A stretch of 64,000 bases of DNA, from assembly GCA_041178225.1 (NCBI GenBank), contig JBEGVV010000024.1:7676-71675 (forward strand), written 5' to 3'. The notes beneath the pieces are model-generated. The model worked only from the letters and a program-made list of their open reading frames with translations. It did no database searches and was not told the DNA's origin. Positions 3,074-33,136 of this stretch are shown here, in pieces. The translations under genes were made by a program, and so were the position numbers. Positions within the stretch are counted from its first letter, which is position 1. Each line of letters opens with the position of its first letter. This DNA comes from Pseudomonadota bacterium (lineage in GTDB: Bacteria; Pseudomonadota; Alphaproteobacteria; CACIAM-22H2).

Positions 3074-3091
3074 CGTGCCGCGGAGGACGGG

Positions 3092-10348: not shown

Positions 10349-10362
10349 GGCCCGCGCGTGCC

Positions 10363-10671: not shown

Positions 10672-11297
10672 GGCATGCCTCCGGGAAGCGTGGCGCCGGC
10701 GAGGAAGCGCGCGATGCCGCCGAGGCCAGTGGGCCGCACCTCCAGCGCGAGGCCGAGGCGGCCTGCCGCGGCGGCCGCGGCGTCGCGCAGCGCCGGGTCG
10801 TCGGCCTGCGCGAGGTAGACCACGCGCCGGTAGTTGCCGAAATAGTCGGGGAGCAGCTCGGGGTGGCGGTCGAGGCCGAGGCCGCGGATGACCAGCGCCT
10901 CGAAATGCCTGACCAGGTAGTCGGTCAGGTAGAAGGTGCCGGGCTCGGCGTCGTGCAGCGCCGCGAACTCCGCCTCTCCGGCATAGAACTCGTAGCAATG
11001 CGCGCCATCGATGCGCTCCACGCCCTCCTCCGCGAGCACGCGGTCGAGCATGCCGCCCGTCCCGCAATCGCCATAGAGGCAGAGCACGCGCTCGAAGCTC
11101 CCGCGCGCCTCGCGGATCCTGCCGCGCACCGCCTCGGGGATCCGCTGCGGGCGGTTATGCAGGTCGGCGGGCAGGCAGGCGAGCTCGACATGGCCCCAGC
11201 CATTGAGGCGGACCACCGCGAGCACCTCGCGCGCGAGCGCGCCGCAGGCGATGACGAGCGTACGCGGCGGGCCCGGATCCGCGCCGTCCGCGCTCAT
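10659..11297 (-). CDS. DUF1638 domain protein (accessory protein commonly encoded beside corrinoid proteins)
   Basis: MSADGADPGPPRTLVIACGALAREVLAVV...LCLYGDCGTGGMLDRVL...AHCYEFY... The start overlaps the corrinoid-protein stop by ATGA. Confidence 0.7.
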   Translation of the reverse strand: MSADGADPGPPRTLVIACGALAREVLAVVRLNGWGHVELACLPADLHNRPQRIPEAVRGRIREARGSFERVLCLYGDCGTGGMLDRVLAEEGVERIDGAHCYEFYAGEAEFAALHDAEPGTFYLTDYLVRHFEALVIRGLGLDRHPELLPDYFGNYRRVVYLAQADDPALRDAAAAAAGRLGLALEVRPTGLGGIARFLAGATLPGGMPWRS

Positions 11298-11989
11298 CCC
11301 GCCGCGCGCTGGTTGTGGCGGCGGCGGATGAGGTCCTTCGCGGTCTCCACCGTCACCGCGGCGTCGCGGCAATAGGCGTCGGCGCCGACCTGGCGCGCGA
11401 AGTCCTCGTTGAGGGGCGCGCCGCCGACGAGGACGATGTAGTCGTCGCGGATGCCCTTCTCCTTCATCGTGTCGATGACGACCTTCATGTAGGGCATCGT
11501 GGTCGTGAGCAGCGCCGACATGCCGATGATGTCCGGCTTGTGCTCCTCGAGGGCGGCCAGGTACTTCTCCACGGGATTGTTGATCCCGAGGTCGATCACC
11601 TCGAAGCCGGCGCCCTCCATCATCATGCAGACGAGGTTCTTGCCGATGTCGTGGATGTCACCCTTGACCGTGCCGATCACCATCTTGCCGATCTTCGGCG
11701 CGCCGGTCTCCGCGAGGAGCGGGCGCAGGATGGCCATCCCCGCCTTCATCGCGTTGGCGGAGAGCAGCACCTCCGGCACGAACAGGATGCCGTCGCGGAA
11801 ATCCTCGCCGACGATGCGCATGCCCTCCACGAGGGCCTTGGTCAGGACGTCGTAGGGCGTCCACCTGCGCGAGAGCAGGATCCGCACGCCCTGCTCGATC
11901 TCCTCCTTGAGGCCGTCATAGAGGTCGTCGTGCATCTGCTGCACGAGGTCGTCGTCGCCAAGCGCGTTGAGGTCGATTTCGTCCGACAT
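11294..11989 (-). CDS. Corrinoid (cobalamin-binding) protein of the methyltransferase-associated MtgC/MtbC/MttC type
   Basis: MSDEIDLNALGDDDLVQQMHDDLYDG... is the N-terminal B12-binding-2 helical cap. It is followed by a Rossmann B12-binding domain with the DxHxxG-like motif (GTVKGDIHDIGKNLV) and GMSALLTTTMPYMK. The 65-aa upstream extension in the track ORF is rejected. Confidence 0.8.
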   Translation of the reverse strand: MSDEIDLNALGDDDLVQQMHDDLYDGLKEEIEQGVRILLSRRWTPYDVLTKALVEGMRIVGEDFRDGILFVPEVLLSANAMKAGMAILRPLLAETGAPKIGKMVIGTVKGDIHDIGKNLVCMMMEGAGFEVIDLGINNPVEKYLAALEEHKPDIIGMSALLTTTMPYMKVVIDTMKEKGIRDDYIVLVGGAPLNEDFARQVGADAYCRDAAVTVETAKDLIRRRHNQRAAG

Positions 11990-12155
11990 GGTCGATAGCC
12001 ACCTGCCTGTGGACCGGGTGGATGTTTCTAGCCCAGCGATAAGCGGCTGTCGCGCGGTTTGCGTCGCCGACGCTTCCGGCTGCCGGGCGTTTCCGCCATG
12101 ATCACGCACGGTAAGGCCGGCGCGTCGCCGGCCGGCAAGCGGGGGAACACAGGGC

Positions 12156-14567
12156 ATGAAATCCCATGTGCGCGTCGTGGTCATCGGCGGTGGCGTGGTC
12201 GGCGCAAGCGTCCTCTACCACCTGACCAAGATCGGCTGGACCGACGCGATGCTGCTGGAGAAGCACGAGCTCACCTCGGGCTCGACCTGGCACGCGGCGG
12301 CCAGCGTCCACACCTACAACTCGGACGCCAACGTCTCGAAGCTGCAGAAGTACACGATCGACCTCTACCGCGAGATCGAGGCGATCTCCGGCCAGTCCTG
12401 CGGCATCCATGCCACCGGCAACATGGTCGTCGCCGCCAACCAGACGGTGCTCGACAACATCCGGATGATGCACAGCCGGGGCAAGTACCTCGGCCTCGAG
12501 ATGGAGCTCATCTCGCCAGAGGAGGCGCGGAAGCTCAACCCGCTGATCGAGCCATCGGAGTTCCTCGGCGCGCTGTGGCGCAAGGACGGCGGCCATGTCG
12601 ACCCCAACGGCGTCACGCAGGCCTACGCGATCGCCGCGCGCAAGGCGGGCGCGGAGGTGCACCGCTTCACGATGGTGAAGGAACTGCACCAGCGGCCGGA
12701 CGGCTCCTGGCGCGTCGTCACCGACAAGGGCGACGTGATCGCCGAGCACGTCGTCAACGCCGGCGGCCTCTGGGCCCGCGAGGTCGGCCGGATGGCCGGC
12801 GTCGAGCTGCCCGTGCTGGCGATGGAGCACATGTACATCGTCACCGAGGAGATGCCCGAGGTCGTGGCCCTCGAGCGCGAGCTGCTGCCGACCACCGACT
12901 ACTCCGGCGAGATCTACATGCGCCAGGAGGGCAAGGGCGTCCTCATGGGCACCTACGAGCGCGACTGCCGCGTCTGGTCCCCGGACACCACGCCGTGGGA
13001 CTTCAACATGCAGCTGCTGCCCGACGACCTCGACCGGCTCAGCCCGCATCTCGAGATCGGCTTCCGCCACTTCCCGGCGATCGGCCGCGCGGGCATCAAG
13101 AAGGTCGTGAACGGCCCCTTCACCTTCGCGCCAGACGGCAACCCGCTGGTCGGCCCGGTGCGCGGGCTGCGCAACTTCTGGAGCGCCTGCGGCGTCATGG
13201 CGGGCTTCGCCCAGGGCGGCGGCGTCGGCCTCGCCCTCTCGCGCTGGATGGAGCATGGCGAACCAGGCGCCGACCTCTTCGCGATGGACGTCTCGCGCTT
13301 CGGCAGCTACGCCACGCCGCGCTACACCCACGTGAAGGTGCAGGAGAACTACCAGCGCCGCTTCCGCATCGCCTTCCCGAACGAGGAGCTGCCGGCGGCG
13401 CGGCCGCTGCGCCGCACGCCGGTCTACGACCGGCTCAAGTCGCGCGGAGCGGTGTTCGGCGCCTCCTTCGGCCTCGAGACGGCGCTGTGGTACGCGCCTG
13501 AGGGAATGGAGGCGGCGGAGACGCCGACCTATCGCCGCTCCAACGCCTTCCCGGTCGTGCGCGAGGAATGCCTCGCCGTGCGCAACGACGTCGGCATCAT
13601 GGAGATCTCCGGCTTCGGCAAGTACGAGGTGTCGGGGCCCGGCGCCGAGGCCTGGCTCGACCACCTGCTCGCGTCGCGCATCCCGAAGCCCGGGCGCATG
13701 GTGCTCGCGCCGATGCTCAACGAGCGCGGCACGATCATGGGCGACTTCTCCCTGGCCCGCCTCGCCGCCGATCGCTTCCTGATGGTCGGCTCGGGCGCGG
13801 CGGAGGTCTTCCACATGCGCTGGTTCGAGCGCATCGGGATCCCGGCGGGCGTCCATGTCCGGCCGCTCCCCGGCGCCCTCACCGGCTTCATGGTCGCCGG
13901 CCCCCGCTCCAGGGAACTGCTCCAGCGCCTCGTGCGCGAGGACATCTCCAACGCCGCGTTCCGCTTCTTCGCCGTGCGCGAGATGGCGGTCGGGATGGTC
14001 CCCGCGATCGTCGCGCGCGCCAGCTACACCGGCGACCTCGGCTACGAGATCTGGACGACGCCGGACTTCCAGATGTCGCTGCACGAGGCGCTGGTCGAGG
14101 CGGGCAAGGATCTGGGCCTGCGCCATTTCGGCAACCGCGCGCTGATGTCGCTGCGGCTCGAGAAGGGCTATGGCGCCTTCCTGCGCGAGTTCCGCCCCGA
14201 CTACACGCCGGTGGAGAGCGGGCTCGACCGCTTCGTCGCCTACGACAAGCCCGGCTTCGTCGGGCGCGAGGCCGCGCTCAGGGACCGCGCGACGCCGCCG
14301 ACGCGCCGCCTCGTGCCGCTGGTGGTCGACACCGACGTCGAGGTCGTCGGCTACGAATCGATCCTCAAGGGTGGCGCGCCCGTCGGCCAGGTCACCTCGG
14401 GCGGCTACGCGCACTGGGCCGGCAAGAGCATGGCGATGGGCTACGTGGCCGCCGAGCACGCGGTCGACGGCGCGGAGTTCGAGATCCAGATCTTCGAGCA
14501 TGTCCGCAAGGCGCGCATCGCGATGACCCCGCTCTTCGACGCCAATGGCGGGCGACAGCGCAGCTGA
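12156..14567 (+). CDS. Dimethylglycine/sarcosine dehydrogenase-like flavoenzyme (FAD amine oxidoreductase with C-terminal GcvT-like THF-binding aminomethyltransferase domain), paralog 1
   Basis: 803 aa. Begins with the dinucleotide fold MKSHVRVVVIGGGVVGASVLYHL. SGSTWHAAA matches the covalent-FAD His motif of DMGDH/SARDH. The C-terminal GcvT fold has FTGDLGYEIW and a YAHWAGKSMAMGYV-type tail. Diverges from the corrinoid operon across a 166-bp intergenic region. Confidence 0.85.
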   Translation: MKSHVRVVVIGGGVVGASVLYHLTKIGWTDAMLLEKHELTSGSTWHAAASVHTYNSDANVSKLQKYTIDLYREIEAISGQSCGIHATGNMVVAANQTVLDNIRMMHSRGKYLGLEMELISPEEARKLNPLIEPSEFLGALWRKDGGHVDPNGVTQAYAIAARKAGAEVHRFTMVKELHQRPDGSWRVVTDKGDVIAEHVVNAGGLWAREVGRMAGVELPVLAMEHMYIVTEEMPEVVALERELLPTTDYSGEIYMRQEGKGVLMGTYERDCRVWSPDTTPWDFNMQLLPDDLDRLSPHLEIGFRHFPAIGRAGIKKVVNGPFTFAPDGNPLVGPVRGLRNFWSACGVMAGFAQGGGVGLALSRWMEHGEPGADLFAMDVSRFGSYATPRYTHVKVQENYQRRFRIAFPNEELPAARPLRRTPVYDRLKSRGAVFGASFGLETALWYAPEGMEAAETPTYRRSNAFPVVREECLAVRNDVGIMEISGFGKYEVSGPGAEAWLDHLLASRIPKPGRMVLAPMLNERGTIMGDFSLARLAADRFLMVGSGAAEVFHMRWFERIGIPAGVHVRPLPGALTGFMVAGPRSRELLQRLVREDISNAAFRFFAVREMAVGMVPAIVARASYTGDLGYEIWTTPDFQMSLHEALVEAGKDLGLRHFGNRALMSLRLEKGYGAFLREFRPDYTPVESGLDRFVAYDKPGFVGREAALRDRATPPTRRLVPLVVDTDVEVVGYESILKGGAPVGQVTSGGYAHWAGKSMAMGYVAAEHAVDGAEFEIQIFEHVRKARIAMTPLFDANGGRQRS

Positions 14568-16258: not shown

Positions 16259-18263
<2,005 letters not shown>

Positions 18264-18271
<8 letters not shown>

Positions 18272-19100
18272 CTTCGGACGCCTCGCGCAGCCCGGTGGCG
18301 AGGAAGTTGAAGCCGACCACCAGCGAGGACACGGCGAGCGCGGGGATCAGCGTCATGTGCGGCCAGACGAAGATCGTGCCGTAGCTCTCCTTGATCATGC
18401 TGCCCCAGTCGGGGTCGGGCGGCGGCAGGCCGATGCCGAGGAAGCCGAGGACGCCGATGGCGATCACCGTGTATCCGAGGCGCAGGAAGAAATCGACGAT
18501 CAGCGGCCCGCGCGCGTTCGGCAGGATCTCGGCAAGCAGCACGAACCATGTCGGCTCGCCGCGCATGCGCGCCGCGGCCACGTAGTCGCGGTTCTTCACG
18601 TCGAGCGTCACCGCGCGCACGATGCGGGCGATGATCGGGGCCTGCGTCACCGTCACGACGGCGATGATGTTGAAGGCCGAGGCGCCGAAGCGCGCGATGA
18701 CGATCAGGTAGAGGATGATCTTGGGGAAGGCGAGCAGCGTGTCGCCGACGCGCATGAGGATGGAATCGACCGCGCCGCCCTTGTAGCCGGCGACCAGCCC
18801 GAGGATCGTGCCCAGCATCGCCGCGCCGAGCACCGCGGCCGGCGCCACGGTCAGCACCGTGCGCGCGCCCCACATCAGGCGCGAGAGGATGTCGCGCCCG
18901 AGCTGGTCGACGCCCAGCCAGTTCGCCGAGGTCGGGTAGGGATAGGCGATGAGCGCCGGGTCGATGCGGTTCGGCGGGTATGGCGCGATCCAGGGCGCCA
19001 GCAGCCCCATCGCCGCCCAGAACAGGACGATCGCGGCGCCCACGCAGCCGACCGGGGAGCGCCCGAGCAGCGCGATCCATGCCGCGGGCCGCGCCCTCAT
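18264..19100 (-). CDS. ABC transporter permease (DppC-like)
   Basis: Starts MRARPAAWIALLGRSPVGCVGAAIVLFWAAMGLLAPWIAPYPPNRIDP. 278 aa and hydrophobic. Overlaps the upstream permease stop and the downstream ATPase start. Confidence 0.8.
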
Positions 19101-20053
19101 ATGCGGATCCTCGGGTCGAGCTTCATGTAGCCGAGGTCGCCGAGGAGCTGGGTCAGCATCGTCACCGTGACGGCGACGAGCGCGCCGGCCTCGACGACGG
19201 CGATGTCCTTGGCGAGCGCGGCCTCGAGCATCATCCGGCCGAAGCCGGGATAGGCGAAGAGCGTCTCGACGACGACCAGCCCGGAGACGAGGTAGTTGAG
19301 CTGCAGCAGGATCACGGTGAACGGCGTGATCAGCGCGTTGCGCATCGCGTGCCGCGTCACCACGCGACCGAAGGGCATGCCCTTCAGCACGGCCGTGCGC
19401 ACGAAGGGCTGGCGCATCACCTCGACCATCGACGCCCGGATCATCGAGATAAGGTATCCGGCGTCGTAGAGCGTCACGACCGCGACGGGCAGCACGAACT
19501 GGATCCATACCGGCCACTCGGGCGAGGCGCGCAGCGGGGACGTGCCGGGCAGCACGCCCAGCCAGACGACGAAGACCGCGAGCATGAACACGCCCATCGC
19601 GAATTCCGGGATGGACGCGCAGACCGAGGCGAAGACGGAGATGCCGCGGTCGAGCGGCGAGCGCTCGCGCATGCCCGCGAGCACGCCGAGCGCCACCGAG
19701 AGCGGCACGATGACCGCGAAGCAGATCGCCGCCAGCAGCAGCGTGTTGCCCAGCCTGTCGAGCAGGACGTCGGCGACGGGCTGGCGGTAGATCACCGACG
19801 TGCCGAGGTCGCCGCGCAGGACGTTGCCGATGTACTCGGCGTAGCGGACGAGCAGCGGCCGGTCGAGGCCCATCTCGCGGAACAGGTGGTCGACCTGCTC
19901 CTGCGAGGCGTAGGGCCCGAGCAGCTTGCGCGCGACGTCGCCGGGCGTGAGTTCGTTGAGGGCGAAGACGAGGAACGTCACCGCCAGCAGCGTGAGGACG
20001 ATGTTCAGCGACTGCCGGAGGAGATAACGCGACACGCGACGCCCCGAGACCAC
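19097..20053 (-). CDS. ABC transporter permease (DppB-like)
   Basis: MVSGRRVSRYLLRQSLNIVLTLLAVTFLVFALNELTPGDVA... with the binding-protein-dependent transport EAA-like region. Confidence 0.8.
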   Translation of the reverse strand: MVSGRRVSRYLLRQSLNIVLTLLAVTFLVFALNELTPGDVARKLLGPYASQEQVDHLFREMGLDRPLLVRYAEYIGNVLRGDLGTSVIYRQPVADVLLDRLGNTLLLAAICFAVIVPLSVALGVLAGMRERSPLDRGISVFASVCASIPEFAMGVFMLAVFVVWLGVLPGTSPLRASPEWPVWIQFVLPVAVVTLYDAGYLISMIRASMVEVMRQPFVRTAVLKGMPFGRVVTRHAMRNALITPFTVILLQLNYLVSGLVVVETLFAYPGFGRMMLEAALAKDIAVVEAGALVAVTVTMLTQLLGDLGYMKLDPRIRI

Positions 20054-20117
20054 GCCGCGCGCAGGCCGCCACCGCCGCGGGCCCGAAGCCCGCGGCGGTG
20101 GCTGCGCGCGACCTGGA

Positions 20118-21788
20118 TCAGCCCTCGATCCAGACTTCCCGGAACTCGATGTAGGCGGTGGGGTGGATCTTGTACCCCTTCACCTTCTTGTCCGTGTAGT
20201 TGAACAGGGCGCGCCAGAGCGGCACGACCGCGGGGCCGTCCTCGAGCATGATGCGCTCGAGCTTGGCCACCACAGCGCGGCGCTTCTCGACGTCGAGGTA
20301 GCCCTCGGCCTCGGCGAGCAGCGCGTCGAACTCCTTGTTCGACCAGTTGGACTCGTTCCACGCCGCGCCCGAGCGGTAGGCGAGGCCGAGCACCATGACG
20401 CCCAGCGGGCGATGGGCCCAGGTGGTGAAGCCGAAGGGCACCTTGGTCCAGATGTCCCAGTACTGGGCCGAGGGCATCACGTTGATCTTCACGCGGATGC
20501 CCGCTTCCTTCCACTGCTCGACCATCGTCTGGACGGCGAGGAGCTCCCAGTCCGGCTGGGGACGGCAGGCGATCTCCGTGTCGATGCCGTTCGGGTAGCC
20601 GGCCTCGGCCAGCAGCGCCTTGGCCTTGGCGACGTCGCGGCGCATGAAGCCGACATCGGCGTACTCGGGATGCACCTGCGCGACGTGGTGGTGCTCGCCG
20701 GGCTTGCCGAGGCCGCGATGCGCGACCTTGAGCACCGCCTCGGTGTCCGTGGCGTAGCGCAGCGCCTGGCGGACGCGCTTGTCGTCGAAGGGCTTGACCG
20801 GCTGCACGCGGGCGACGGCGGTATAGGCCGTGTCGACCGAGTTGATCTGGACATGCGGCAGGCGCTCGGCCGCGGGCAGCGCGGCGATCGCGCCCTGGTA
20901 GATCATGTCCACCTGGCGCGAGGCCAGCGCGGCGACCTGCGCCGCGCTGTCGTCGCCGAGGTCGATGACCTCGATGCGGTCGAGCCACGGGCCGCTGCCC
21001 CAGTACTTGTCCTTGCGCGCCGCCAGGACCGCGCGCTTCCCGACCTCGAGCTCGACGAGCTCGTAGGCGCCCGTGCCGTTCGAGCCGACGCCGAACTTGC
21101 CGCCCTCGGCCGGGTCGAGCATGTGCGCGGGATAGTGGAACATCGCCTCGGGGATGCCGAGGAAGGACGTCTTGCCGTTGATCTCGAAGGTGAAGTCGTC
21201 GACCTTGCGGAAGGCGTTGGCGTCCCAGAGGCGGAACGACACGCGCTTCTTCTGGGTCTTCGGGTCGATCTCGTCGAGCTCGAAGTTCTCGAGCAGGAAG
21301 GCGCGCAGCAGGCCGACGGTCGAGGAACCGGTCGCCGGCTCGAGCATGCGCTTCATGTTCCAGATCGCGTCGTCGGCGTTGAACGGCCTGCCGCCCTTGC
21401 GCCAGTTGGCGTCGCGCCGCAGCGAGATCTTCCACGACTTGAGGTCGGGGCTCGCCTCCCACTTCTCGACGAGGCCGGGGCGCGTGATGTTGTCGACGCC
21501 GGTATAGGTCAGGTACTCGACGGTCTGGCGCGCGACATTGGTCGCCTCGATCCAGGAATAGGTATGCGGGCTGGAGAGGTCCTGCACGCGCATGCCGAGG
21601 CGCAGCGTGCCGCCCTTGCGCGGCGCGCCCTGCGCCATCGCGGGCTCGGGCAGGCCGGCCATCGAGTAGGCTGCGCCGGCACCCACGCCCAGCAGCGTGG
21701 CGATGCGAAGGAACTCGCGGCGCTCGAGCTTGCCGTCGGCCATCTCGCGGCCGGCGGAGGTGACGAGCGGATGGATCTTGTCTGTCAT
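20118..21788 (-). CDS. ABC transporter substrate-binding protein, family 5 (DppA/OppA/opine/nickel type), Tat signal
   Basis: Twin-arginine motif RREFLRIATLLGVGAGAAY. About 556 aa with family-5 SBP-like features. The start may instead be the second Met (MADGK, about 21743). Confidence 0.8.
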   Translation of the reverse strand: MTDKIHPLVTSAGREMADGKLERREFLRIATLLGVGAGAAYSMAGLPEPAMAQGAPRKGGTLRLGMRVQDLSSPHTYSWIEATNVARQTVEYLTYTGVDNITRPGLVEKWEASPDLKSWKISLRRDANWRKGGRPFNADDAIWNMKRMLEPATGSSTVGLLRAFLLENFELDEIDPKTQKKRVSFRLWDANAFRKVDDFTFEINGKTSFLGIPEAMFHYPAHMLDPAEGGKFGVGSNGTGAYELVELEVGKRAVLAARKDKYWGSGPWLDRIEVIDLGDDSAAQVAALASRQVDMIYQGAIAALPAAERLPHVQINSVDTAYTAVARVQPVKPFDDKRVRQALRYATDTEAVLKVAHRGLGKPGEHHHVAQVHPEYADVGFMRRDVAKAKALLAEAGYPNGIDTEIACRPQPDWELLAVQTMVEQWKEAGIRVKINVMPSAQYWDIWTKVPFGFTTWAHRPLGVMVLGLAYRSGAAWNESNWSNKEFDALLAEAEGYLDVEKRRAVVAKLERIMLEDGPAVVPLWRALFNYTDKKVKGYKIHPTAYIEFREVWIEG

Positions 21789-21921
21789 TTCGAACCCTCC
21801 CTTTGTTGTCCGGACCCTAGCCGCGGGCCGGGCGGCGCGACAAGGCGGGTCTTTCGCGGCGCTGGAGATTCCCGCGCCGCCGATCCAGCATCGCCAAGGT
21901 CACGATTGCAGGAGCGAGGCG

Positions 21922-23463
21922 ATGGAGACGACACGGACGGGCGGCACTGGCCGCGGCAGGGCGCGCGCGCGGGCCGGGCGCTCGGCCCCGGCGGCGCACC
22001 AGCCGCTGCCGCGCCTGTCGAATCGCTGGAAGCCGCTCGAGGTGCTGTCCGCGGAGCAGCTCGAGCGGATCGTCGACGCCGCCTTCCGCATCCTCCAGGA
22101 CGGCGGCCTCGAGATGCGCAGCGCGCGCGCCCGGCAGGCCTGCCGCCGCCATGGCTGCCTCGTCGACGAGGAGACGCAGGTCGTGCGGATGGGGCGCGAC
22201 GTCGTGGAGGCCATGCTGCGCCACGCGCCGGAGCGCTTCGTCCTGCATGCGCGCAACCCCGCGCGGCACCTGCATGTCGGCGGCGACGTCGTCAATTTCG
22301 GCCCGGTCGGCGGCGCGCCCCATGTCACCGACGCCGAGCGCGGCCGGCGCTACGGCGACCTCGAGGCCTTCCGCGACATCATCAAGGTGGCCAGCGCGCT
22401 CGGCGTTCTGCACTGGCAGGGCGGCATGGTCGTGGAGCCGGTCGACGTGCCGGTGCCGGTGCGCCACCTCGAGGCCTATCGCGCGCATGTCGAGCTCTCG
22501 GACCTCGTCTGGAGCTCGCGAGGCACGGGCGCGGTGCAGTCGATCGACGGGATCGCGATGTCGGCGATCGAGCACGGCACGACTCCCGAGGGCCTCGCGG
22601 CGCGGCCGACGCTTCTGTGCATCACCAACGTCAACTCGCCGCGGCGCGTCGACGAGGAGATCCTCGAGAGCGTGATGATCCTCGCCGAGCACGGCCAGTG
22701 CGTGGCCATCACGCCCTTCACGCTGATGGGCGCGATGGCGCCGATCACGCTGGCCGGCGCGCTCGCGCAGGGCGCGGCGGAGGCGCTGGGCATCATCGCG
22801 CTGTGCCAGATGGTGAGGCCGGGCACGCCCTGCGTCTTCGGCGCCTTCACCTCGAACGTCGACATGCGCACCGGCGCGCCCGCCTTCGGCACGCCCGAGT
22901 ACGTCAACGCGACGATCGCGAGCGCCCAGCTCGCGCGCCGCTTCCGCCTGCCCGTGCGGTCGAGCGCGCCCAACGCCAGCCCCTGCGTCGACGCCCAGGC
23001 CACCTGGGAGACCGCCTTCTCCCTCTGGGCCTCGGTGATGAGCCACAGCAACCTCGTCTACCACGCGGCGGGATGGCTCGAGGGCGGGCTGTCGGCGTCG
23101 ATGGAGAAGATCGTCGTCGACGCGGAGATGCTGCGCGGCTGGGCGGAGATCCTGAAGCCGGTCGACTTCACCGACGACGACATCGGCGTCGACGCGATCC
23201 TCGGGGTGCCGCCGGGCGGGCATTTCTTCGGCACGGCGCACACGCTCGCGCGCTACGAGACCGCCTTCTGGCGCCCGATCCTCTCCGACTGGTCGAACTT
23301 CGAGAACTGGCGCGACGCCGGCGCGCGGACGGCGACCGACCGCGCGGCCGCGATGTGGCGAGGACTGCGCGACGCCTATGTCCCGCCGCCGCTCGACCCG
23401 GCGATCCGCGAGGAGCTCGACGCCTATGTCGCCCGGCGGCGCGAGGAGCTCGGCGCGCGATGA
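21922..23463 (+). CDS. MttB-superfamily quaternary-amine:corrinoid methyltransferase, non-pyrrolysine type (glycine betaine MtgB-like), paralog 1
   Basis: 513 aa, uninterrupted with no in-frame TAG. Starts METTRTGG...NRWKPLEVLSAEQLERIVDAAFRILQDGGLE. Conserved MttB-family blocks ITPFTLMGAMAPITLAGALAQ and GAFTSNVDMRTGAPAFGTPEY. AGGAG SD upstream. Confidence 0.85.
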   Translation: METTRTGGTGRGRARARAGRSAPAAHQPLPRLSNRWKPLEVLSAEQLERIVDAAFRILQDGGLEMRSARARQACRRHGCLVDEETQVVRMGRDVVEAMLRHAPERFVLHARNPARHLHVGGDVVNFGPVGGAPHVTDAERGRRYGDLEAFRDIIKVASALGVLHWQGGMVVEPVDVPVPVRHLEAYRAHVELSDLVWSSRGTGAVQSIDGIAMSAIEHGTTPEGLAARPTLLCITNVNSPRRVDEEILESVMILAEHGQCVAITPFTLMGAMAPITLAGALAQGAAEALGIIALCQMVRPGTPCVFGAFTSNVDMRTGAPAFGTPEYVNATIASAQLARRFRLPVRSSAPNASPCVDAQATWETAFSLWASVMSHSNLVYHAAGWLEGGLSASMEKIVVDAEMLRGWAEILKPVDFTDDDIGVDAILGVPPGGHFFGTAHTLARYETAFWRPILSDWSNFENWRDAGARTATDRAAAMWRGLRDAYVPPPLDPAIREELDAYVARRREELGAR

Positions 23464-24275
23464 GCGGCTTCGTCGCGAATGCGCGGATGTACGCGGTCGC
23501 GCCCGCCGCCGAGGAGGCATGGCGCGCACTGCTCGCCCATGCCTGCGCCGAGGCCGGGCTCGCGCTCGCCTACATGCCCTATCCCGCGCCGCAGCCGCTC
23601 GAGGAGCTCTGGGCGCGGCCGGACCTCGGCGCGGTGTTCATGTGCGGCTATCCGATCGCGCTCGGCCTCGCGGAGGTGGTGCCGCTCGTCGCGCCGATCC
23701 CCGACGCGCCCTGGGCGGGCGGGCGGGCGGTCTATCGCAGCGACCTGATCGTGCATCGCGATTGCCCATGGCGATCGCTCGAGGACGGCTTCGGCGGCCA
23801 TGCGGGCTGGACGGTCGGGCATTCGCATTCCGGCTTCAACGCCTTCCGCCACCACCTGCTGCCCCATCGCAGCGCCGCGCGGCCGCGGCTCTTCGCGCGC
23901 ACGACCGGCGGCCTCGTCACCGCGCGGCGCATACTCGACGCGGTGGCCGCGGGCGAGATCGACATCGGCCCGCTCGACGCCTACTGGCACCTGCTGCTGC
24001 GGCGGCACCGCCCGGAGCTCGTCGCGCCCATACGCGTGCTCGAGAGCACGGCGACCGCCCCGGCACCCGCCATCGTCTGCGCGCCGGCAATGCCCGGCGA
24101 CGACGCGAGGCGCCTGCGCGCGGCCCTGGTCGCCGCGCCATCGCGCCCGTGGTTCCCGGCGCTCGCGCGCGAGCTCTGCCTCGCCGGCTTCGCGCCCGTC
24201 GCGCGCGAGGACTACGCGGCGACGCTGGCCTGGGACGCGGAGGCCCGCGCCGCCGGATACCCCGAGCCTGCGTGA
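23460..24275 (+). CDS. PhnD/SsuA-like periplasmic-binding-protein-fold protein without a signal peptide (cytoplasmic ligand-binding protein)
   Basis: MSGFVANARMYAVAPAAEEAWRALL... has the ARMY/AV N-terminus typical of PhnD-like proteins but no hydrophobic leader. The ATG overlaps the MttB1 stop (ATGA). Confidence 0.6.
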   Translation: MSGFVANARMYAVAPAAEEAWRALLAHACAEAGLALAYMPYPAPQPLEELWARPDLGAVFMCGYPIALGLAEVVPLVAPIPDAPWAGGRAVYRSDLIVHRDCPWRSLEDGFGGHAGWTVGHSHSGFNAFRHHLLPHRSAARPRLFARTTGGLVTARRILDAVAAGEIDIGPLDAYWHLLLRRHRPELVAPIRVLESTATAPAPAIVCAPAMPGDDARRLRAALVAAPSRPWFPALARELCLAGFAPVAREDYAATLAWDAEARAAGYPEPA

Positions 24276-25168
24276 TGGACAGGCGGCCCGCGATCGAATG
24301 GCCGACGATCGCGCTCGCCGCGGCGCTGCACGCGGCATGGATCGCGCTGTGCCTCTTCCACGCGTCGCTCCCGTGGTGGGCCTTCGCGGCCTGCGCGGCG
24401 GTCGTCTCGGCCTGGTTCTCGTCGCTCCAGCACGAGGCGATCCACGGCCACCCGACGCGCAGCGCGACGTTCAACCACGCCATCGCCTGCGCGCCGCTCT
24501 GGATCTGGCTTCCCTATTCGCGCTACCGCGACACGCACCTGCTCCACCATCGCGACCACAGGCTGACCGACCCGCTCGACGACCCGGAGAGCCGCTACGT
24601 CACCCCGGAGGACTGGGCCGCGCGCGGGCCGATCGGCCGGGCCGCGCTCCGCGCGCAGTCGACGCTGCTCGGCCGCCTCGCGATCGGCCCGGCATGGAGC
24701 GCGGCATCCTTCCTGCGCGCCGAATGGGCGAACCGGCGCGACCCGCGCATCGCCCGCGCCTGGGCCGCGCACCTGGCGCTGCTCCTTCCCTTCCTCGCGT
24801 GGACGCTATGGGCCTGCGGCGTCCCGGCCTGGCTCTACGTCCTCGGCTTCGTTCAGGGCGGCGGCGCGCTCGCCATGCTGCGCTCCTTCGCGGAGCACCG
24901 CGCGCATGGCGACCCGGCCCGGCGCACCGCGGTCGTCGAGAACGCGACGCTGCTGGGCCCCGTCTTCCTGTTCAACAACCTGCACGCCACGCACCACCGC
25001 TGGCCCGGCGTCGCCTGGTACAGGCTGCCCGCGCTCCATCGCGCGCGCCGCGACGAGCTGCTCGCCGCCAATGGCGGCCTCGCCTATGACGGCTACGGCG
25101 AGGTCGCCCGCCGCTTCCTGCTGCGCGCGCACGACCAGCCGGAGCACCCGCTCGGCCGCGCCCCCTGA
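24275..25168 (+). CDS. Membrane fatty-acid-desaturase-family di-iron protein (desaturase/hydroxylase/CrtW-like)
   Basis: Three His boxes (QHEAIHGH, HHRDHRLTD, NNLHATHHRWPGVAWYRLP) with TM segments between them. The ATG overlaps the upstream stop. Confidence 0.7.
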   Translation: MDRRPAIEWPTIALAAALHAAWIALCLFHASLPWWAFAACAAVVSAWFSSLQHEAIHGHPTRSATFNHAIACAPLWIWLPYSRYRDTHLLHHRDHRLTDPLDDPESRYVTPEDWAARGPIGRAALRAQSTLLGRLAIGPAWSAASFLRAEWANRRDPRIARAWAAHLALLLPFLAWTLWACGVPAWLYVLGFVQGGGALAMLRSFAEHRAHGDPARRTAVVENATLLGPVFLFNNLHATHHRWPGVAWYRLPALHRARRDELLAANGGLAYDGYGEVARRFLLRAHDQPEHPLGRAP

Positions 25169-25171
25169 GCC

Positions 25172-26494
25172 TCAGCCCAGCGGGGACAGCAGCGTCTCCA
25201 CGACGCGGCGCGCGGCCGGCGCGCCCTCGATCCCCGCGATGTCGTCGCGCAGCGCGTCGTGGCGCGCACGGCCGATGCGCGGCACCAGCGACTCCTCGGC
25301 CTTGGCGAAGAGCTCGGCGTCCGACAGCGGGTCCTCGGGATCGCCGCGCGCCTCCGTGCGCGGGCTGGCGAGCACGGTGCCGTCGGCGAGCGTGACCTCG
25401 ACGATCGCGATGCGTCGCGCGGGGAAGAGCGCGTCGAGCTCGGGATCGGTCTCGGTCGTGATGCGATGCGCCATCGCCAGCGTCGCCGGGTCGCGCAGCC
25501 CCGTCGTCACGGTCTCGCCATCCACCTTGCCGTGGGCGAGCATGGCCGCGACCGGGAAGGGCAGCGCGTATTGCGCGGCGTCGGTGCCGTCGGGCTCGCG
25601 CACGTCGAGCCGCGCGGCCGCGTGGAAGGTGCGGATGCGCACCTTCTCGATCGCGCGTCCCGCCGCCTGCGCGCGCAGCGCCTGGGCCGCGGCGACGGAA
25701 GGCTGCGCCCAGCGGCAGATGGGCCAGGGCTTGAAGTACTGCTCGAGGATCCGCCAGCGCGTCCCGAGGTCGCCCCAGAACGCAGCCGCGTCGCCGCCCT
25801 CGACGCTGATCGCCGGCGCGCCCGTGAAGCCCGCCTGCGCCATCAGCGCCGCCGACAGCCCGACCTGCCCGCCATAGGTCGAGCCGTCCTTGACCATCGT
25901 GGGGAAGTCGATGCAGCGCATCATCTGGCTGCGCGGGCCATAGAACTCCGCGGTGCCCAGCGCATGGCGCGTCGTCTCGCGGTCGAAGCGCAGCGCGCGC
26001 GCGGCGACCGCGGCCGCGGCGAGCGCGTTCCACGCGCCGGAGGTGTGGTAGTCGGGGACCGTGGCGTGCAGCGCGATGCCCGCGCGCGTCGCGATCTCGT
26101 ACCCCATCACGAGCCGCACGAGGAACTCGGCGCCGTCGCGCGAGGGCGCCGCCTCGTCCTCGAGCGCGAGCAGCGCCGGGAGGACGACGACGCCGGCATG
26201 GCCCTTGGTCAGGCGATGCCCGTCATGCGCATCGTAGCCGTCGATCGTCGCGGCGCCGGCCATCGCCGCGCCCGGCAGCGACACGCGACGCCCGTCGAAG
26301 ATCATGCGCGCGCCGAGCCGCCCGCCCAGCTGGTGGGCCGCGGCGAAGTCGTGGACGATGCGCGACACCGGCGTCCCGCGTCCGCTGGCGGCGACGCCCG
26401 CGAGGTCGAGCAGGCACATCCGCGCGCGGTGCCGCACCTCCGCCGGAATGTCCGCCAGCGAGAGCCCATGGACGAAATCCAACCAGTCGCGCAT
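25172..26494 (-). CDS. MmgE/PrpD family protein (2-methylcitrate dehydratase-like)
   Basis: Starts MRDWLDFVHGLSLADIPAEVRHRARMCLLDLAGVAASG. About 440 aa with the typical MmgE/PrpD N-terminus. The 58-aa upstream extension is rejected. Confidence 0.75.
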   Translation of the reverse strand: MRDWLDFVHGLSLADIPAEVRHRARMCLLDLAGVAASGRGTPVSRIVHDFAAAHQLGGRLGARMIFDGRRVSLPGAAMAGAATIDGYDAHDGHRLTKGHAGVVVLPALLALEDEAAPSRDGAEFLVRLVMGYEIATRAGIALHATVPDYHTSGAWNALAAAAVAARALRFDRETTRHALGTAEFYGPRSQMMRCIDFPTMVKDGSTYGGQVGLSAALMAQAGFTGAPAISVEGGDAAAFWGDLGTRWRILEQYFKPWPICRWAQPSVAAAQALRAQAAGRAIEKVRIRTFHAAARLDVREPDGTDAAQYALPFPVAAMLAHGKVDGETVTTGLRDPATLAMAHRITTETDPELDALFPARRIAIVEVTLADGTVLASPRTEARGDPEDPLSDAELFAKAEESLVPRIGRARHDALRDDIAGIEGAPAARRVVETLLSPLG

Positions 26495-29195: not shown

Positions 29196-31604
29196 ATGAA
29201 GTCCCATGCAAAGGCCGTCGTCATCGGTGGCGGCGTCGTCGGCGCGAGCGTCCTCTACCACCTGACCAAGGTGGGCTGGCGCGACGTCGTCCTGGTCGAG
29301 CGCTCGGAACTGACCTCTGGCTCGACCTGGCATGCCGCGGGAGGCATGCACACGATCAACGGCGACCCGAACGTCGCCAAGCTGCAGCAGTACACGATCA
29401 ACCTCTACAAGGAGATCGAGGAGATCTCCGGCGTGTCCTGCGGCGTGCACATCACCGGCGGGCTCATGCTCGCCGGCACCAGGACGCGCTACGACTGGCT
29501 GAAGATGGTCCATGCGCGCGGCCGCTACCTCGGCATGGACCTCGAGTTCGTCGACCTCGCCGAGGCCAAGCGCCTCTTCCCGCTCATGGAGACCAAGTAC
29601 TTCGTGGGCGCGCTCTACGACCCGATCGAGGGCCATGTCGACCCGTGGGGCGTCACCAACGCCTACGCCAAGGCCGCGACGATCCAGGGCGCGACGGTCG
29701 AGAAGCACAACCGCGTCGTCGAGCTGCTGCACCGGCCGGACGGCTCGTGGGACGTCGTGACCGAGAAGGGCACGATCCACGCCGAGCACGTCGTCAACGC
29801 GGGCGGCCTGTGGGCGCGCGAGGTCGGGCGCATGGTCGGCCTCGAGCTGCCCATCCTCGCGATGGAGCACCAGTACATCATCTCCGAGGAGATCCCCGAG
29901 GTCGCCGCCTCGGAGAAGGAGATGCTCCACATCGTCGATTCCGACGGCGAGATCTACATGCGCCAGGAAGGCAAGGGCATGCTCATGGGCACCTATGAGC
30001 GCGCCGGCGTGCCATGGTCCGAGCGCGACACGCCCTGGAGCTTCGGCCACGAGCTGCTCAACAACGACATCGACCGCATCGCCCCGTCGCTCGAGGTCGG
30101 CTTCCGCCACTATCCCGCGATCGAGAAGGCGGGCATCAAGAAGATCATCAACGGCCCCTTCACCTTCGCGCCGGACGGCAACCCGGTCATCGGCCCGGTC
30201 CGCGGCCTGAGGAACTACTGGGTCGCCTGCGGCGTGATGGCGGGGTTCAGCCAGGGCGGCGGCGTCGGGCTGTCGCTCGCGAACTGGATGGCGCACGGCG
30301 ATCCCGGCGCCGACATCTGGGGCATGGACGTCGCGCGCTTCGGCGACTGGGCGACGATGGCCTACACCAACGCGAAGGTGCGCGAGAACTACTCGCGGCG
30401 CTTCCGCATCCGCTTCCCCAACGAGGAACTGGCCGCGGCGCGCCCGCTCAAGACCACGCCCGTCTACGACCGCCTCAAGGCGGCCAACGCCGTCTTCGGC
30501 GACTACTGGGGCATGGAGCACGCGCTGTGGTTCGCGCCGCCGGGGACCGAGCCCGTCGAGGAGATCACCTTCCGGCGCTCGAACGCGCACCCGCATGTCG
30601 CGGCCGAGGTTAAGGCCGTGCGCGAGGGCGTCGGCCTCGTCGAGATCTCCAGCTACGGGAAGTTCGAGGTCGAGGGCCCCGGGGCGGAGGCGTGGCTGTC
30701 GCGCATGATGGCCAACCGCATGCCGGAGGCCGGGCGCATCGTGCTCACGCCGATGCTCAACGACCGCGGCAGGCTGATCGGCGACTTCACCATCGCGCGG
30801 ATCGCCGCCGACCGCTTCTTCCTCGTCGGCACGATGGCGGCGGAGCGCTTCTACCAGCGCTGGTTCGAGCGCCACATGCCGGCGACCGGCGTGGTCGCGC
30901 GTGCCTGCGCCAACGAATGGGTCGGGCTGTCGATCGCCGGCCCGCGCTCGCGCGCGCTGCTGCAGAAGCTCGTGCGCGACGACCTCTCGGCCTTCCCGTT
31001 CCTGTCCTTCCGCCGGATGGACATCGGCATGGCCCCGGCGATGGTCGGCCGCGTCTCCTTCACCGGCGACCTCGGCTACGAGATCTGGGTGAAGCCGGAG
31101 TACCAGCGCTACCTGCACGAACTGCTCCTCGATGCCGGGCGCGACGACGGCATCCGCCATTTCGGCGCGCGTGCCCTGCACTCCATGCGCCTCGAGAAGA
31201 GCTTCGGGACATGGGCGCGCGAGTACCGCCCGCTCTACGGGCCGGTCGAGGCCGGGCTCGGCCGCTTCGTGGCCTGGGACAAGCCGGACTTCGTCGGGCG
31301 CGCCGCGGCGCTGGAGGATCGGGCCAGCGGCGGCAAGCTGCGGCTCTGCGCCTTCCGGGTCGAGGCCGGCGACGCCGACGCCATCGGCGACGAGCCGATC
31401 TGGCATCGCGGCAAGCCGCTGGGCTGGGTGACGTCGGGCGGCTATGGCCACTCCGTGGGCGCGTCGCTCGCGCTCGGCTACGTGCCGCGGGACATCGCCT
31501 CGGAGGTCGACGGCTTCGAGGTCGAGATCATCGGCGAGCGCCGGCGCGCCACGCGCCTGCCCGAGCCCGCCTTCGACCCGAAGGGCACGAGGATGCGCGC
31601 ATGA
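29196..31604 (+). CDS. Dimethylglycine/sarcosine dehydrogenase-like flavoenzyme with C-terminal GcvT/THF domain, paralog 2
   Basis: 802 aa. Starts MKSHAKAVVIGGGVVGASVLYHL and contains SGSTWHAAGG (covalent-FAD His). About 65% identical to paralog 1 by eye. GGGGGAG SD upstream. The stop overlaps the MttB2 start (ATGA). Confidence 0.85.
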   Translation: MKSHAKAVVIGGGVVGASVLYHLTKVGWRDVVLVERSELTSGSTWHAAGGMHTINGDPNVAKLQQYTINLYKEIEEISGVSCGVHITGGLMLAGTRTRYDWLKMVHARGRYLGMDLEFVDLAEAKRLFPLMETKYFVGALYDPIEGHVDPWGVTNAYAKAATIQGATVEKHNRVVELLHRPDGSWDVVTEKGTIHAEHVVNAGGLWAREVGRMVGLELPILAMEHQYIISEEIPEVAASEKEMLHIVDSDGEIYMRQEGKGMLMGTYERAGVPWSERDTPWSFGHELLNNDIDRIAPSLEVGFRHYPAIEKAGIKKIINGPFTFAPDGNPVIGPVRGLRNYWVACGVMAGFSQGGGVGLSLANWMAHGDPGADIWGMDVARFGDWATMAYTNAKVRENYSRRFRIRFPNEELAAARPLKTTPVYDRLKAANAVFGDYWGMEHALWFAPPGTEPVEEITFRRSNAHPHVAAEVKAVREGVGLVEISSYGKFEVEGPGAEAWLSRMMANRMPEAGRIVLTPMLNDRGRLIGDFTIARIAADRFFLVGTMAAERFYQRWFERHMPATGVVARACANEWVGLSIAGPRSRALLQKLVRDDLSAFPFLSFRRMDIGMAPAMVGRVSFTGDLGYEIWVKPEYQRYLHELLLDAGRDDGIRHFGARALHSMRLEKSFGTWAREYRPLYGPVEAGLGRFVAWDKPDFVGRAAALEDRASGGKLRLCAFRVEAGDADAIGDEPIWHRGKPLGWVTSGGYGHSVGASLALGYVPRDIASEVDGFEVEIIGERRRATRLPEPAFDPKGTRMRA

Positions 31605-33136
31605 CCGAAAGGCGCGGGCGGCGCGAGAGGCAGGCGGCAGCCGGGCGCGACGCCGCGGCCGCGCAGCCCGCCGCGCAGCCGCGCCTGCCCTTCGCGCCGG
31701 TTCCGGCGGTCTCGGCGGACGAGCTGGAGGCCATCCACCTCGCCTCGCTCGGCATCCTCGAGGAGATCGGGATGGACATCCTCGACGAGGAGGCGCGCGG
31801 GATACTGCGCGCCGCCGGGGCGAGGACCGAGGCAGGGTCGCCGCGCGTGCGCATCGACCGCGGCGTGGTCGAGGCGGCGCTCGGCAAGGCGCCCCGCTCC
31901 TTCCGCCTGCACGCGCGCAACCCGGCCCGCGGGGTCGAGATCGGCGGCGACGCCGTGGCCTTCGGCTCGGTGGCGAGCGCGCCCAACGTCGCCGACCGCG
32001 CGCGCGGCCGCCGGCCGGGGAACCGCGCCGACTTCGACGACCTGCTGCGGCTGGTACAGGTCCTGCCCGCCGTCCATGTCGTCGCGGGATACCCGGTGGA
32101 ACCGGCCGACATCCACGCCTCGATCCGCCACCTCGACGCGCTGCTCGACATGCTGACGCTGACGGACAAGCCCATCCACGCCTACAGCCTGGGCAGGCAG
32201 CGCATCCTCGACGGCATCGAGATGGCGCGCATCGCGCGGGGCATCGACCGCGCCACGCTCGAGCGCGAGCCCTCCCTGTTCACGATCATCAACACCTCCT
32301 CGCCGCTGCGCCTCGACGAGCCGATGTGCATCGGCGTCATCGAGATGGCGCGCGCCAACCAGGCCGTCTGCGTCACTCCCTTCACCCTGGCAGGCGCGAT
32401 GGCGCCGGTGACGATCGCGGGCGCCGTGACGCAGCAGAACGCGGAGGCGCTGGCCGGGCTCGTCCTCGCGCAGGCCGCGCGCGAAGGCTCGCCCTTCGTC
32501 TATGGCGGCTTCACCTCGAACGTCGACATGAAGTCCGGCGCGCCGGCCTTCGGCACGCCGGAATACATGAAGGCGGCGCTGCTCGGCGGACAGCTCGCGC
32601 GCCGCTACGGCCTGCCCTACCGGTCCTCCAACGCCTGCGCCGCGAACACGCTCGACGCGCAGGCCGCCTACGAGAGCGTGTTCTCGCTCTGGGGCGCGAT
32701 CATGGGCGGCGCCAACCTGCTGATGCATGGCGCGGGATGGATGGAGGGCGGGCTGCAGGCCTCGTTCGAGAAGATGGTCCTCGACGCGGACCTGCTCGGC
32801 ATGGTGGCTGAGTTCCTCCGCCCGCTCGGCACCTCTCCAAGCGACCTCGCGGTCGACGCGATGCGCGAGGTCGGGCCCGGTGGCCATTTCTTCGGCTGCG
32901 CCCATACGCAGGCGCGCTATCGCACGGCGTTCTTCGCCCCGATGGTCTCCGACTGGCGCAACCACGAGGCCTGGCGCGAGGCCGGCTCCCCCGACGCCCA
33001 CGACGCGACCGGTCGCCTCTGGCGCGAGAAGCTCGCCGCCTATGCCGAGCCGCCGATGGATCCCGCGACCCGCGAGGAGCTCGAGGCCTTCGTCGCCCGC
33101 CGCAAGGCCGAGGGCGGCGTGAAGACGGATTTCTGA
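31601..33136 (+). CDS. MttB-superfamily quaternary-amine:corrinoid methyltransferase (non-Pyl), paralog 2
   Basis: 511 aa, uninterrupted. MTERRG...LPFAPVPAVSADELEAIHLASLGILEEIGMD. Conserved blocks VTPFTLAGAMAPVTIAGAVTQQNAEAL and GGFTSNVDMKSGAPAFGTPEY. Translationally coupled to DMGDH2. Confidence 0.85.
   Translation: MTERRGRRERQAAAGRDAAAAQPAAQPRLPFAPVPAVSADELEAIHLASLGILEEIGMDILDEEARGILRAAGARTEAGSPRVRIDRGVVEAALGKAPRSFRLHARNPARGVEIGGDAVAFGSVASAPNVADRARGRRPGNRADFDDLLRLVQVLPAVHVVAGYPVEPADIHASIRHLDALLDMLTLTDKPIHAYSLGRQRILDGIEMARIARGIDRATLEREPSLFTIINTSSPLRLDEPMCIGVIEMARANQAVCVTPFTLAGAMAPVTIAGAVTQQNAEALAGLVLAQAAREGSPFVYGGFTSNVDMKSGAPAFGTPEYMKAALLGGQLARRYGLPYRSSNACAANTLDAQAAYESVFSLWGAIMGGANLLMHGAGWMEGGLQASFEKMVLDADLLGMVAEFLRPLGTSPSDLAVDAMREVGPGGHFFGCAHTQARYRTAFFAPMVSDWRNHEAWREAGSPDAHDATGRLWREKLAAYAEPPMDPATREELEAFVARRKAEGGVKTDF

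Follow-up and report, generated by a model that had tools for sequence, protein, structure and literature searches.

What do a quaternary-amine methyltransferase, a solute-binding protein without a signal peptide and a membrane protein of the fatty acid desaturase family have to do with each other? This question is raised by three consecutive plus-strand genes in a stretch of 64,000 nucleotides, hereafter the window, from contig JBEGVV010000024.1 of an alphaproteobacterium (assembly GCA_041178225.1, positions 7,676 to 71,675). Because the G+C content of the window is ~72%, genes were called from the G+C content of third codon positions (GC3 frame plots), in which the coding frame switches at ~23460 and ~24275. 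The three genes and their junctions, in window positions, are the following:

21922..23463, plus strand: MttB1, a quaternary-amine:corrinoid methyltransferase of the non-pyrrolysine MttB superfamily (PF06253)
23460..23463, plus strand: ATGA stop/start overlap of the MttB1 and PhnD-like genes, read from the sequence
23460..24275, plus strand: PhnD-like protein, a leaderless, predicted cytoplasmic ligand-binding protein of PhnD fold and of the AioX/ArrX branch, 271 aa (PF12974)
24273..24277, plus strand: TGATG stop/start overlap of the PhnD-like and desaturase-like genes, read from the sequence
24275..25168, plus strand: desaturase-like protein, a membrane protein of the desaturase/hydroxylase family with a putative di-iron site (PF00487)

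An initial annotation, made from the sequence alone, had assigned the three products to these families and pointed out both overlaps. The overlaps are confirmed in the sequence, and the assignments are supported by Pfam with scores of 606.6 bits for MTTB (cut-off 25, profile positions 2-500 covered), 60.7 bits for Phosphonate-bd (cut-off 27) and 102.4 bits for FA_desaturase (cut-off 29.7). A promoter and terminator scan of positions 21600-25400 found none, and no Rfam family reached its gathering score in the whole window, so that neither a cobalamin nor a glycine riboswitch was detected. The stop codons of the desaturase-like gene and of a convergent gene of the MmgE/PrpD family lie 3 nt apart (25166-25174), with no terminator-like structure between them.

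The conservation of these genes was followed in two sets of loci. For the PhnD-centred set one genome per species was scanned, and the best 80 loci were taken from 437 genomes with PhnD-like relatives, a species-level figure that comes from two motif patterns only; the desaturase-centred set consists of 80 loci from a metagenome scan, of which the 62 with both flanks visible are informative. In 46 of the 80 PhnD-centred loci the gene immediately before the PhnD-like one, and in the same orientation, encodes an MttB of 67-93% identity, and 41 of these 46 carry the desaturase-like gene immediately after the PhnD-like one. Median gaps are 5 nt between the MttB and PhnD-like genes (n=69) and -4 nt between the PhnD-like and desaturase-like genes (n=79), and the 4-nt overlap of the first junction is also present in locus L177. 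Trio carriers are found in the Alphaproteobacteria (Alsobacter, Prosthecomicrobium, Methylocystis, Beijerinckiaceae), in the Gammaproteobacteria, many of them Steroidobacteraceae, and in the Burkholderiales. Among the carriers that can be cultured are Terrarubrum flagellatum 7MK25 (L8F45_RS29830 and RS29835), Alsobacter ponti SYSU M60028 and Prosthecomicrobium hirschii 16. Furthermore, when five MttB1 orthologues on long contigs were chosen regardless of their neighbours, four were directly followed by a PhnD-like gene; the fifth has MttB followed by an importer of the Opp type, on a contig that ends before the expected position of the PhnD-like gene. MttB paralogues of 49% identity or less have no PhnD-like partner; MttB2 and MttB3 of the window are among them and have no desaturase-like partner either. 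The association of the trio is far beyond chance, and the conservation that the initial annotation had expected is borne out.

The trio is, however, not the smallest conserved unit. An adjacent PhnD-like gene is present in 56 of the 62 informative desaturase-centred loci, in four arrangements. The most frequent one (32 loci) places the desaturase-like gene convergent with a PhnD-like class of 58-66% identity, most with MttB beyond; in 17 loci the desaturase-like gene is followed by a co-directional PhnD-like gene of a 27-36% class, with no MttB and, where examined, with PrmA, G6PD and GNAT genes; in 4 loci a co-directional PhnD-like gene of a 42-44% class precedes the desaturase-like gene; and 3 loci are close relatives of the window. 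Of the six exceptions, three have MttB and a PhnD-like gene at a distance of ~5.7 kb. Across the pairs, identity is ~46-86% for the desaturase-like protein and 27-85% for the PhnD-like protein. The conserved core is the desaturase-like/PhnD-like pair, the tightest link of the trio, which had been overlooked when the three genes were taken as a unit. The coupling proposed for the third gene likewise holds in the window, by its TGATG overlap, but is a minority arrangement: the desaturase-like gene is co-directional with the PhnD-like gene in only 6 of 79 cases and convergent in 73. The position of MttB can also be taken by another enzyme, as a gene of the ornithine cyclodeaminase (OCD) family replaces it upstream of the PhnD-like gene in 9 of the 80 PhnD-centred loci. 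Several of these loci still have MttB in the cluster, a few kb upstream and with an Opp-type ABC (ATP-binding cassette) importer in between; in others the desaturase-like gene follows, and then genes for a corrinoid protein, DUF1638, PF13769 and RACo. In L004, L019, L072 and L087, too, MttB and the PhnD-like gene are separated by a transporter of the Opp type.

Several loci of these sets carry further genes. In loci of the 42-44% class (L134, L136 at 9120-13264, L163 at 9108-11613) a cupin gene of the dimethylsulphoniopropionate-lyase type comes next, followed in L134 and L136 by GFA and M24 hydrolase genes, and L136 has cytochrome b and c1 directly upstream. On Rhizobium, Sinorhizobium and Agrobacterium plasmids (L170-L172) a desaturase-like gene of ~48-51% identity is found among sulphur-scavenging genes (LLM monooxygenases, sulphonate/sulphate ABC transporters, msuE, tauA), with a PhnD-like gene adjacent to it in L172 and a few kb off in L171. 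Plasmid pRL12 of Rhizobium johnstonii 3841 (L089, 815377-822096) encodes a leaderless PhnD-like protein (35%) inside a betaine-type ABC operon, in the order hutC, hutH, OpuAC-type binding protein, OCD, PhnD-like protein, two permeases and ATPase, with no desaturase-like gene. In L017, L025, L031, L033 and other loci that lack both MttB and the desaturase-like gene, a gene for a conserved TPR-like protein of 552-573 aa comes after the PhnD-like gene and in most such loci overlaps it; the sole Pfam match of this protein is a weak one to TPR_8. Natural gene fusions were considered as Rosetta-stone evidence, but the long hits P0126, P0150, P0158 and P0173 proved to be frameshifted read-throughs with Arg-rich junk.

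The PhnD-like protein is predicted to be cytoplasmic. A cleavable signal peptide, the finding that according to the initial annotation would make it an ordinary periplasmic binding protein, was looked for together with a transmembrane segment and a hydrophobic N-terminus, and none was found. Coding potential begins at 23460, and the frame upstream is Arg-rich with no hydrophobic stretch. Among the 120 closest database homologues, 117 have 262-277 aa, and the motif N[AS]RMY, found in 119 of the 120, starts at residue 13 or earlier in 116; the few longer N-termini are not hydrophobic. The leaderless state is common to all PhnD-like classes, which share M10, Y11, W51, C62-G63, S122, G125 and D173, and in an alignment of 56 diverse homologues from the wider family Y11, W21, W51, C62, Y92, S122 and S124 are invariant and D173 nearly so.

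An AlphaFold (AF2) model based on the same 56 homologues has a mean predicted local distance difference test score (pLDDT) of 97.3. The closest solved relatives are AioX and ArrX by sequence (E 6e-15), and AioX is the best Foldseek match (template modelling (TM) score 0.78), followed by XAC2383, PtxB and PhnD and, lower, by the sterol binder BstB (7t1m, TM 0.60). The pocket of AioX is formed by Tyr88, Cys106, Tyr131, Ser161, Ser163, His192 and Asp210 (PMC5908839). Mapped onto the PhnD-like protein through a profile alignment, five of these seven residues are identical (C62=C106, Y92=Y131, S122=S161, S124=S163, D173=D210), His192 corresponds to Ala155 and Tyr88 aligns near Y41/P44. The amine-binding positions E177 and D205 of PhnD are Tyr175 and Pro203, as in AioX. 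Since the AioX-like residues are kept and the amine-binding residues of PhnD are replaced, the pocket appears to be built for a small anionic group; the protein also has many conserved aromatic residues, which are candidates for holding a trimethylammonium group. The score against the transporter subfamily TIGR01098 is 16.2 bits (cut-off 112), and phnC and phnE genes were looked for in the window without result. Neither in the window nor in 160 related loci does a histidine kinase or a response regulator stand next to the PhnD-like gene. No arsenic genes are present near the PhnD-like gene, and an arsenic function is a minor possibility. A family-wide metal site formed by the His-rich motifs HSHSG, RHH and WH is unlikely, because these histidines are confined to the MttB-linked subclass.

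The product of the third gene contains the three histidine boxes of membrane desaturases and hydroxylases (H53xxxH57, H88xxHH92, H237xxHH241), all invariant in an alignment of 18 homologues of 53-84% identity, and hydrophobic stretches at residues ~12-44 and 165-185, which in the AF2 model (pLDDT 85) form helix pairs at 9-56 and 157-207, that is, four transmembrane helices. Together with the PF00487 match, these features uphold the identity given to it at the outset. Its fold matches are weak: a desaturase-like subunit of a chloroplast motor complex comes first, then AlkB (E 0.23) and SCD1 (E 3.6). None of the named equivalogs is reached, with 29.5 bits against a cut-off of 380 for GntB, 23.1 against 475 for CrtR and 20.6 against 350 for CrtW. 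An acidic loop, LTDPLDDPESRY (residues 97-108, window 24563-24598), is almost entirely invariant among the same 18 homologues and is also the part modelled with lowest confidence (pLDDT 62-64). Being invariant and yet poorly modelled, it would be typical of a segment that becomes ordered on a partner or on the substrate, as a lid does.

The open reading frame of MttB1 is uninterrupted and has no in-frame UAG (pyrrolysine) codon, and the protein scores 257 bits against the trimethylamine-specific equivalog TIGR02369, under its cut-off of 525. It matches PDB entry 4yyc (348 bits) and the MtgB of D. hafniense (2qne/9yce, 293 bits), in which glycine betaine is contacted by Y97, F356, R312 and H348 (PMC13080624). 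The carboxylate contacts R312 and H348 are kept in MttB1 and also in MttB3. At the cation-pi positions Y97 and F356, MttB1 has Gly in both cases and MttB3 has Ser and Gly, respectively; a nearby Trp is supplied in both by a conserved GWLEGG motif. As both cation-pi positions are Gly in MttB1, the pocket of MttB1 and MttB3 is probably larger than that of the glycine-betaine-specific MtgB, and specificity may differ. The retention of the carboxylate-binding Arg and His leads us to infer that the substrate of MttB1 is a carboxylate-bearing betaine.

Orthologues of MttB1 (69-72% identity) also occur as fusions of ~840 aa, in which a homocysteine S-methyltransferase domain, PF02574, forms the N-terminal part (P0411, P0413, P0416, P0422, P0425, P0454, P0458, P0504). 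PF02574 and MttB are found fused or as neighbours at 16387-18915 of L087 and 4015-6524 of L173; in the latter, PF02574 is encoded by a gene of its own, which overlaps the start of MttB. This arrangement implies that methyl groups of betaine pass by way of the corrinoid to homocysteine, giving methionine.

The remaining genes of the window bear on the substrate, and those of interest are the following:

8321-10348, minus strand: RACo, corrinoid reactivation
10363-10671, minus strand: PF13769-like gene, corrinoid reactivation
10659-11297, minus strand: DUF1638, corrinoid reactivation
11294..11989, minus strand: B12-binding corrinoid protein, MtgC-like (79% by tblastn to a PF02607/PF02310 protein of L004)
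12156..14567, plus strand: first dimethylglycine dehydrogenase (DMGDH)-like gene (DAO-FAO_M-GCV_T), 60% identical to the paralogue at 29196-31604
16259..21788, minus strand: Opp/Dpp-type ABC importer, divergent from MttB1 (Pfam and gene calls)
20118-21788, minus strand: SBP_bac_5 protein of this importer
19097-20053 and 18264-19100, minus strand: permeases of this importer
16259-18271, minus strand: fused ATPase of this importer
29196..31604, plus strand: second DMGDH-like gene (PF01266, PF16350, PF01571, PF08669)
31691-33136, plus strand: MttB2 (tblastn, 46-47% to MttB1)
33140-34150, plus strand: 2-oxoglutarate-Fe(II) oxygenase (Pfam)
34147-35706, plus strand: MttB3 (tblastn, 46-47% to MttB1)

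The RACo, PF13769-like and DUF1638 genes are 63-68% identical (tblastn) to Pfam-bearing counterparts in L004, and the corrinoid protein beside them is the probable methyl acceptor of MttB1; this module, 10 kb upstream within the window, had been overlooked in the first account of the trio. The DMGDH-like enzymes may serve the later demethylation steps. A pterin-binding MtgD gene was not identified among the window genes scanned. GFA and M24 hydrolase genes are also present around the trio; a link to formaldehyde handling was set aside, GFA genes being found in just 5 of the 160 loci. An acyl-CoA dehydrogenase gene follows the block of MttB2, oxygenase and MttB3, and a partial open reading frame of 642 aa at window 1-1929, whose coding signal is strong (GC3 0.95), gave no match to Pfam at E ≤1e-5.

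When the 1,677 genes called in the 160 related loci were clustered without prior labels, the commonest neighbours besides the trio were ABC-importer ATPases and permeases, OpuAC-type betaine-binding proteins, DMGDH-like proteins and soxB, soxD, soxA and soxG. Opp-type importers, enzymes of the OCD and MR_MLE families and the corrinoid protein, together with the genes for its reactivation, recur as well. In L001, L003, L013, L049 and L050, MttB is immediately preceded by a DMGDH-like gene. In Steroidobacteraceae the order is MttB and PhnD-like gene, then on the opposite strand desaturase-like gene, permease, ATPase, permease and OpuAC, and then soxBDAG; the desaturase-like gene thus closes an OpuAC-type betaine importer operon that converges on MttB and the PhnD-like gene. 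Two loci of this family (L176 at 1-4654, L177 at 175-5004) have a TonB-dependent receptor and a TPR-sulphotransferase (~650 aa) directly upstream of MttB, the sulphotransferase stop overlapping the MttB start in L177. No lipid-synthesis, acyltransferase or lipase family recurs across the 160 loci. The trio stands within a cobalamin-dependent catabolic island for betaine-type quaternary amines, and, because importers, DMGDH-like proteins and sarcosine oxidase recur and lipid genes do not, these surroundings argue for a small soluble betaine and not for a lipid as the substrate. The DMGDH-like genes, soxBDAG and the OpuAC importer favour glycine betaine as the simplest reading for MttB1, and a bulkier betaine is possible.

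We therefore put forward, tentatively and as a reading that falls somewhat short of an even chance, that the binding protein captures a metabolite of the betaine pathway and hands it over to a membrane di-iron oxygenase, beside the MttB-corrinoid route. In the first step MttB1 would move one methyl group from a carboxylate-bearing betaine, either glycine betaine or a somewhat bulkier relative, to the Co(I) of the corrinoid protein. The PhnD-like protein would then close on a small anionic or zwitterionic metabolite, which may be an imported betaine or the demethylated product, through the Ser-x-Ser anion site at a helix end with the participation of Cys62, Tyr92 and Asp173. The loaded protein would dock on the cytoplasmic face of the membrane enzyme, in a manner comparable to that of periplasmic AioX on its membrane sensor, and the di-iron enzyme would oxidise the ligand with O2, by hydroxylation or by oxidative N-demethylation, leading to an oxygen-dependent step next to the corrinoid route. 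That the PhnD-like and desaturase-like proteins form a two-component oxygenase, in which the metabolite is delivered to the di-iron centre from inside the cell, is possible but rather doubtful. In such an enzyme the PhnD-like protein would be the specificity subunit and the membrane protein the conserved catalytic one, which would account for the wider divergence of the former (27-85%, as compared with ~46-86%). The data also accord with the alternative offered in the initial annotation, in which a small quaternary amine would be presented or sensed by the PhnD-like protein.

Several observations weigh against this proposal. As the two genes converge in 73 of the 79 cases, the pair is not co-transcribed there. 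Neither MttB nor the desaturase-like gene is found in 23 of the 80 PhnD-centred loci, whose neighbours (MTA phosphorylase, MtnA, Ldh_2, the TPR-like protein) give no clear functional lead, and PhnD-like genes without a desaturase-like gene also occur in Alsobacter (L003/L012), in L174 and on Rhizobium pRL12; thus the PhnD-like protein does not need this partner. Some pairs stand in sulphur-scavenging or housekeeping contexts without betaine genes. The loci show no recurrent neighbour that would donate electrons to a di-iron enzyme, most members of the PF00487 membrane family act on lipids, and the ligand of a pocket of the AioX type could be an inorganic oxyanion instead of a betaine.

Another explanation, which we consider unlikely but worth weighing, is that the binding protein serves MttB and the importer, taking betaine off the ABC importer or removing the product and feeding MttB1 or OCD-type enzymes. 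The membrane protein would then be no more than a conventional lipid desaturase or hydroxylase, regulated together with osmolyte uptake so as to adapt the membrane. The median gap of 5 nt between MttB and the PhnD-like gene, the presence of the latter downstream of four of the five MttB1 orthologues, its coupling to OCD in 9 of 80 loci, its place inside the betaine ABC operon of pRL12, its occurrence without the desaturase-like gene and the co-directionality of the desaturase-like gene with OpuAC importer genes all speak for this reading. However, the adjacency of a PhnD-like gene in 56 of 62 loci, at least 17 of them without MttB or a visible importer, would be left unexplained, and the characterised MttB enzymes are described as methylating their cognate corrinoid protein or free cobalamin, with no mention of a binding-protein partner (PMC13080624).

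It is quite improbable, in our estimation, that the binding protein is a cytoplasmic sensor that, once it has bound its ligand, switches the membrane protein or a regulator and so decides whether betaine is stored as an osmolyte or catabolised. The closest solved structures, AioX and ArrX, are indeed sensor-coupled binding proteins, and regulators of the XRE type (~282 aa) are encoded beside the desaturase-like gene in L010, L046, L072, L096 and L086; but a histidine kinase or response regulator is adjacent in none of the loci, and the translational coupling of the PhnD-like gene is to enzymes (MttB, OCD), not to regulators. There is very little probability in the suggestion of the initial annotation that the substrate is membrane-associated, namely a lipid head group, as in the betaine lipid DGTS (with its trimethylhomoserine), a trimethyl-ornithine lipid or phosphatidylcholine, which would be made accessible to MttB1. 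The desaturase family is membrane-bound, the PhnD-fold protein BstB, among the fold matches, binds sterols, and the PhnD scaffold would suit head groups of the amine-C2-oxyanion kind such as phosphocholine; against this, it is small-amine importers and enzymes, not lipid families, that recur in the 160 loci, MttB1 keeps the carboxylate-binding Arg and His, and the pocket residues of the PhnD-like protein are polar and AioX-like. Finally, the possibility of a miscalled start codon, by which the PhnD-like protein would be a conventional periplasmic binding protein of a transporter, as its PF12974 match and the label of phosphonate ABC substrate-binding protein in public records might suggest, is effectively excluded by the coding start at 23460 after a non-hydrophobic frame, by the same short length of 117 of 120 homologues with the first beta-strand motif at residues 2-13, and by the TIGR01098 score (16 against 112 bits) and the lack of PhnC/PhnE genes.

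Glycine betaine and related onium compounds are major sources of carbon, nitrogen and methyl groups in soil and water. The three protein families and the aerobic MttB-corrinoid route are known; what is new here is a conserved, uncharacterised two-gene accessory module. A literature search combining MttB with PhnD, or desaturase with betaine, found no description of the association, in line with the first impression that it had not been described. As two further genes travel with a large orthologous group of MttB, the pathway model for aerobic corrinoid-dependent betaine demethylation would seem to be incomplete. If the hand-over to a di-iron oxygenase is correct, it would constitute an unrecognised oxygen-dependent step in the bacterial catabolism of betaine, dimethylglycine or onium compounds, and a two-component oxygenase of this kind would be an enzyme architecture not described before. 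A solute-binding-protein fold, which normally feeds transporters or sensors from outside the cell, would have an inverted role, the known roles of both the binding-protein fold and the membrane di-iron enzymes would widen, and the automated labels 'phosphonate transporter component' and 'fatty acid desaturase' would need correcting.

The nearest known system is the aerobic demethylation of glycine betaine by MtgB, MtgC and MtgD with RACo and DUF1638, described in 2025 in Ruegeria pomeroyi and other Alphaproteobacteria (PMC12478193). Both systems belong to aerobic Proteobacteria and comprise a PF06253 methyltransferase, a separate B12-binding protein, RACo and DUF1638, with DMGDH and sarcosine-oxidising enzymes nearby; in the present one, however, PhnD-like and desaturase-like genes accompany MttB1, and neither 'desaturase' nor 'phosphonate' occurs in the main text of that report, nor do these words or 'PhnD' in its supplements. 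MttB1 shares the superfamily of the D. hafniense MtgB (2qne, 9yce; 293 bits) and its R312 and H348, and differs from it by Gly at Y97 and F356. The PhnD-like protein shares five of seven pocket residues with AioX and ArrX (6esk, 6eu7, 6xl2), including the AioX-specific Cys and Asp, whereas these are periplasmic proteins acting with a histidine kinase and a response regulator (XSR module) and it is predicted to be cytoplasmic, is encoded with MttB and a putative membrane di-iron protein, and has Ala in place of His192. With PhnD of E. coli, which binds 2-aminoethylphosphonate (3p7i), it has in common the Pfam family, the fold (TM 0.77) and the anion site of Tyr and Ser-x-Ser, but it has no signal peptide and no PhnCE, and E177/D205 are replaced by Tyr175/Pro203. 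The desaturase-like protein resembles AlkB (8sbb), SCD1 (6wf2), CrtW/CrtR and GntB in its PF00487 domain, three histidine boxes and four transmembrane helices; to our knowledge, none of these enzymes has a binding-protein partner. Among them GntB, a weak match of 29.5 bits, is a transmembrane enzyme that hydroxylates free arginine, and by analogy it may serve as a useful precedent for the transmembrane hydroxylation of a free amino acid.

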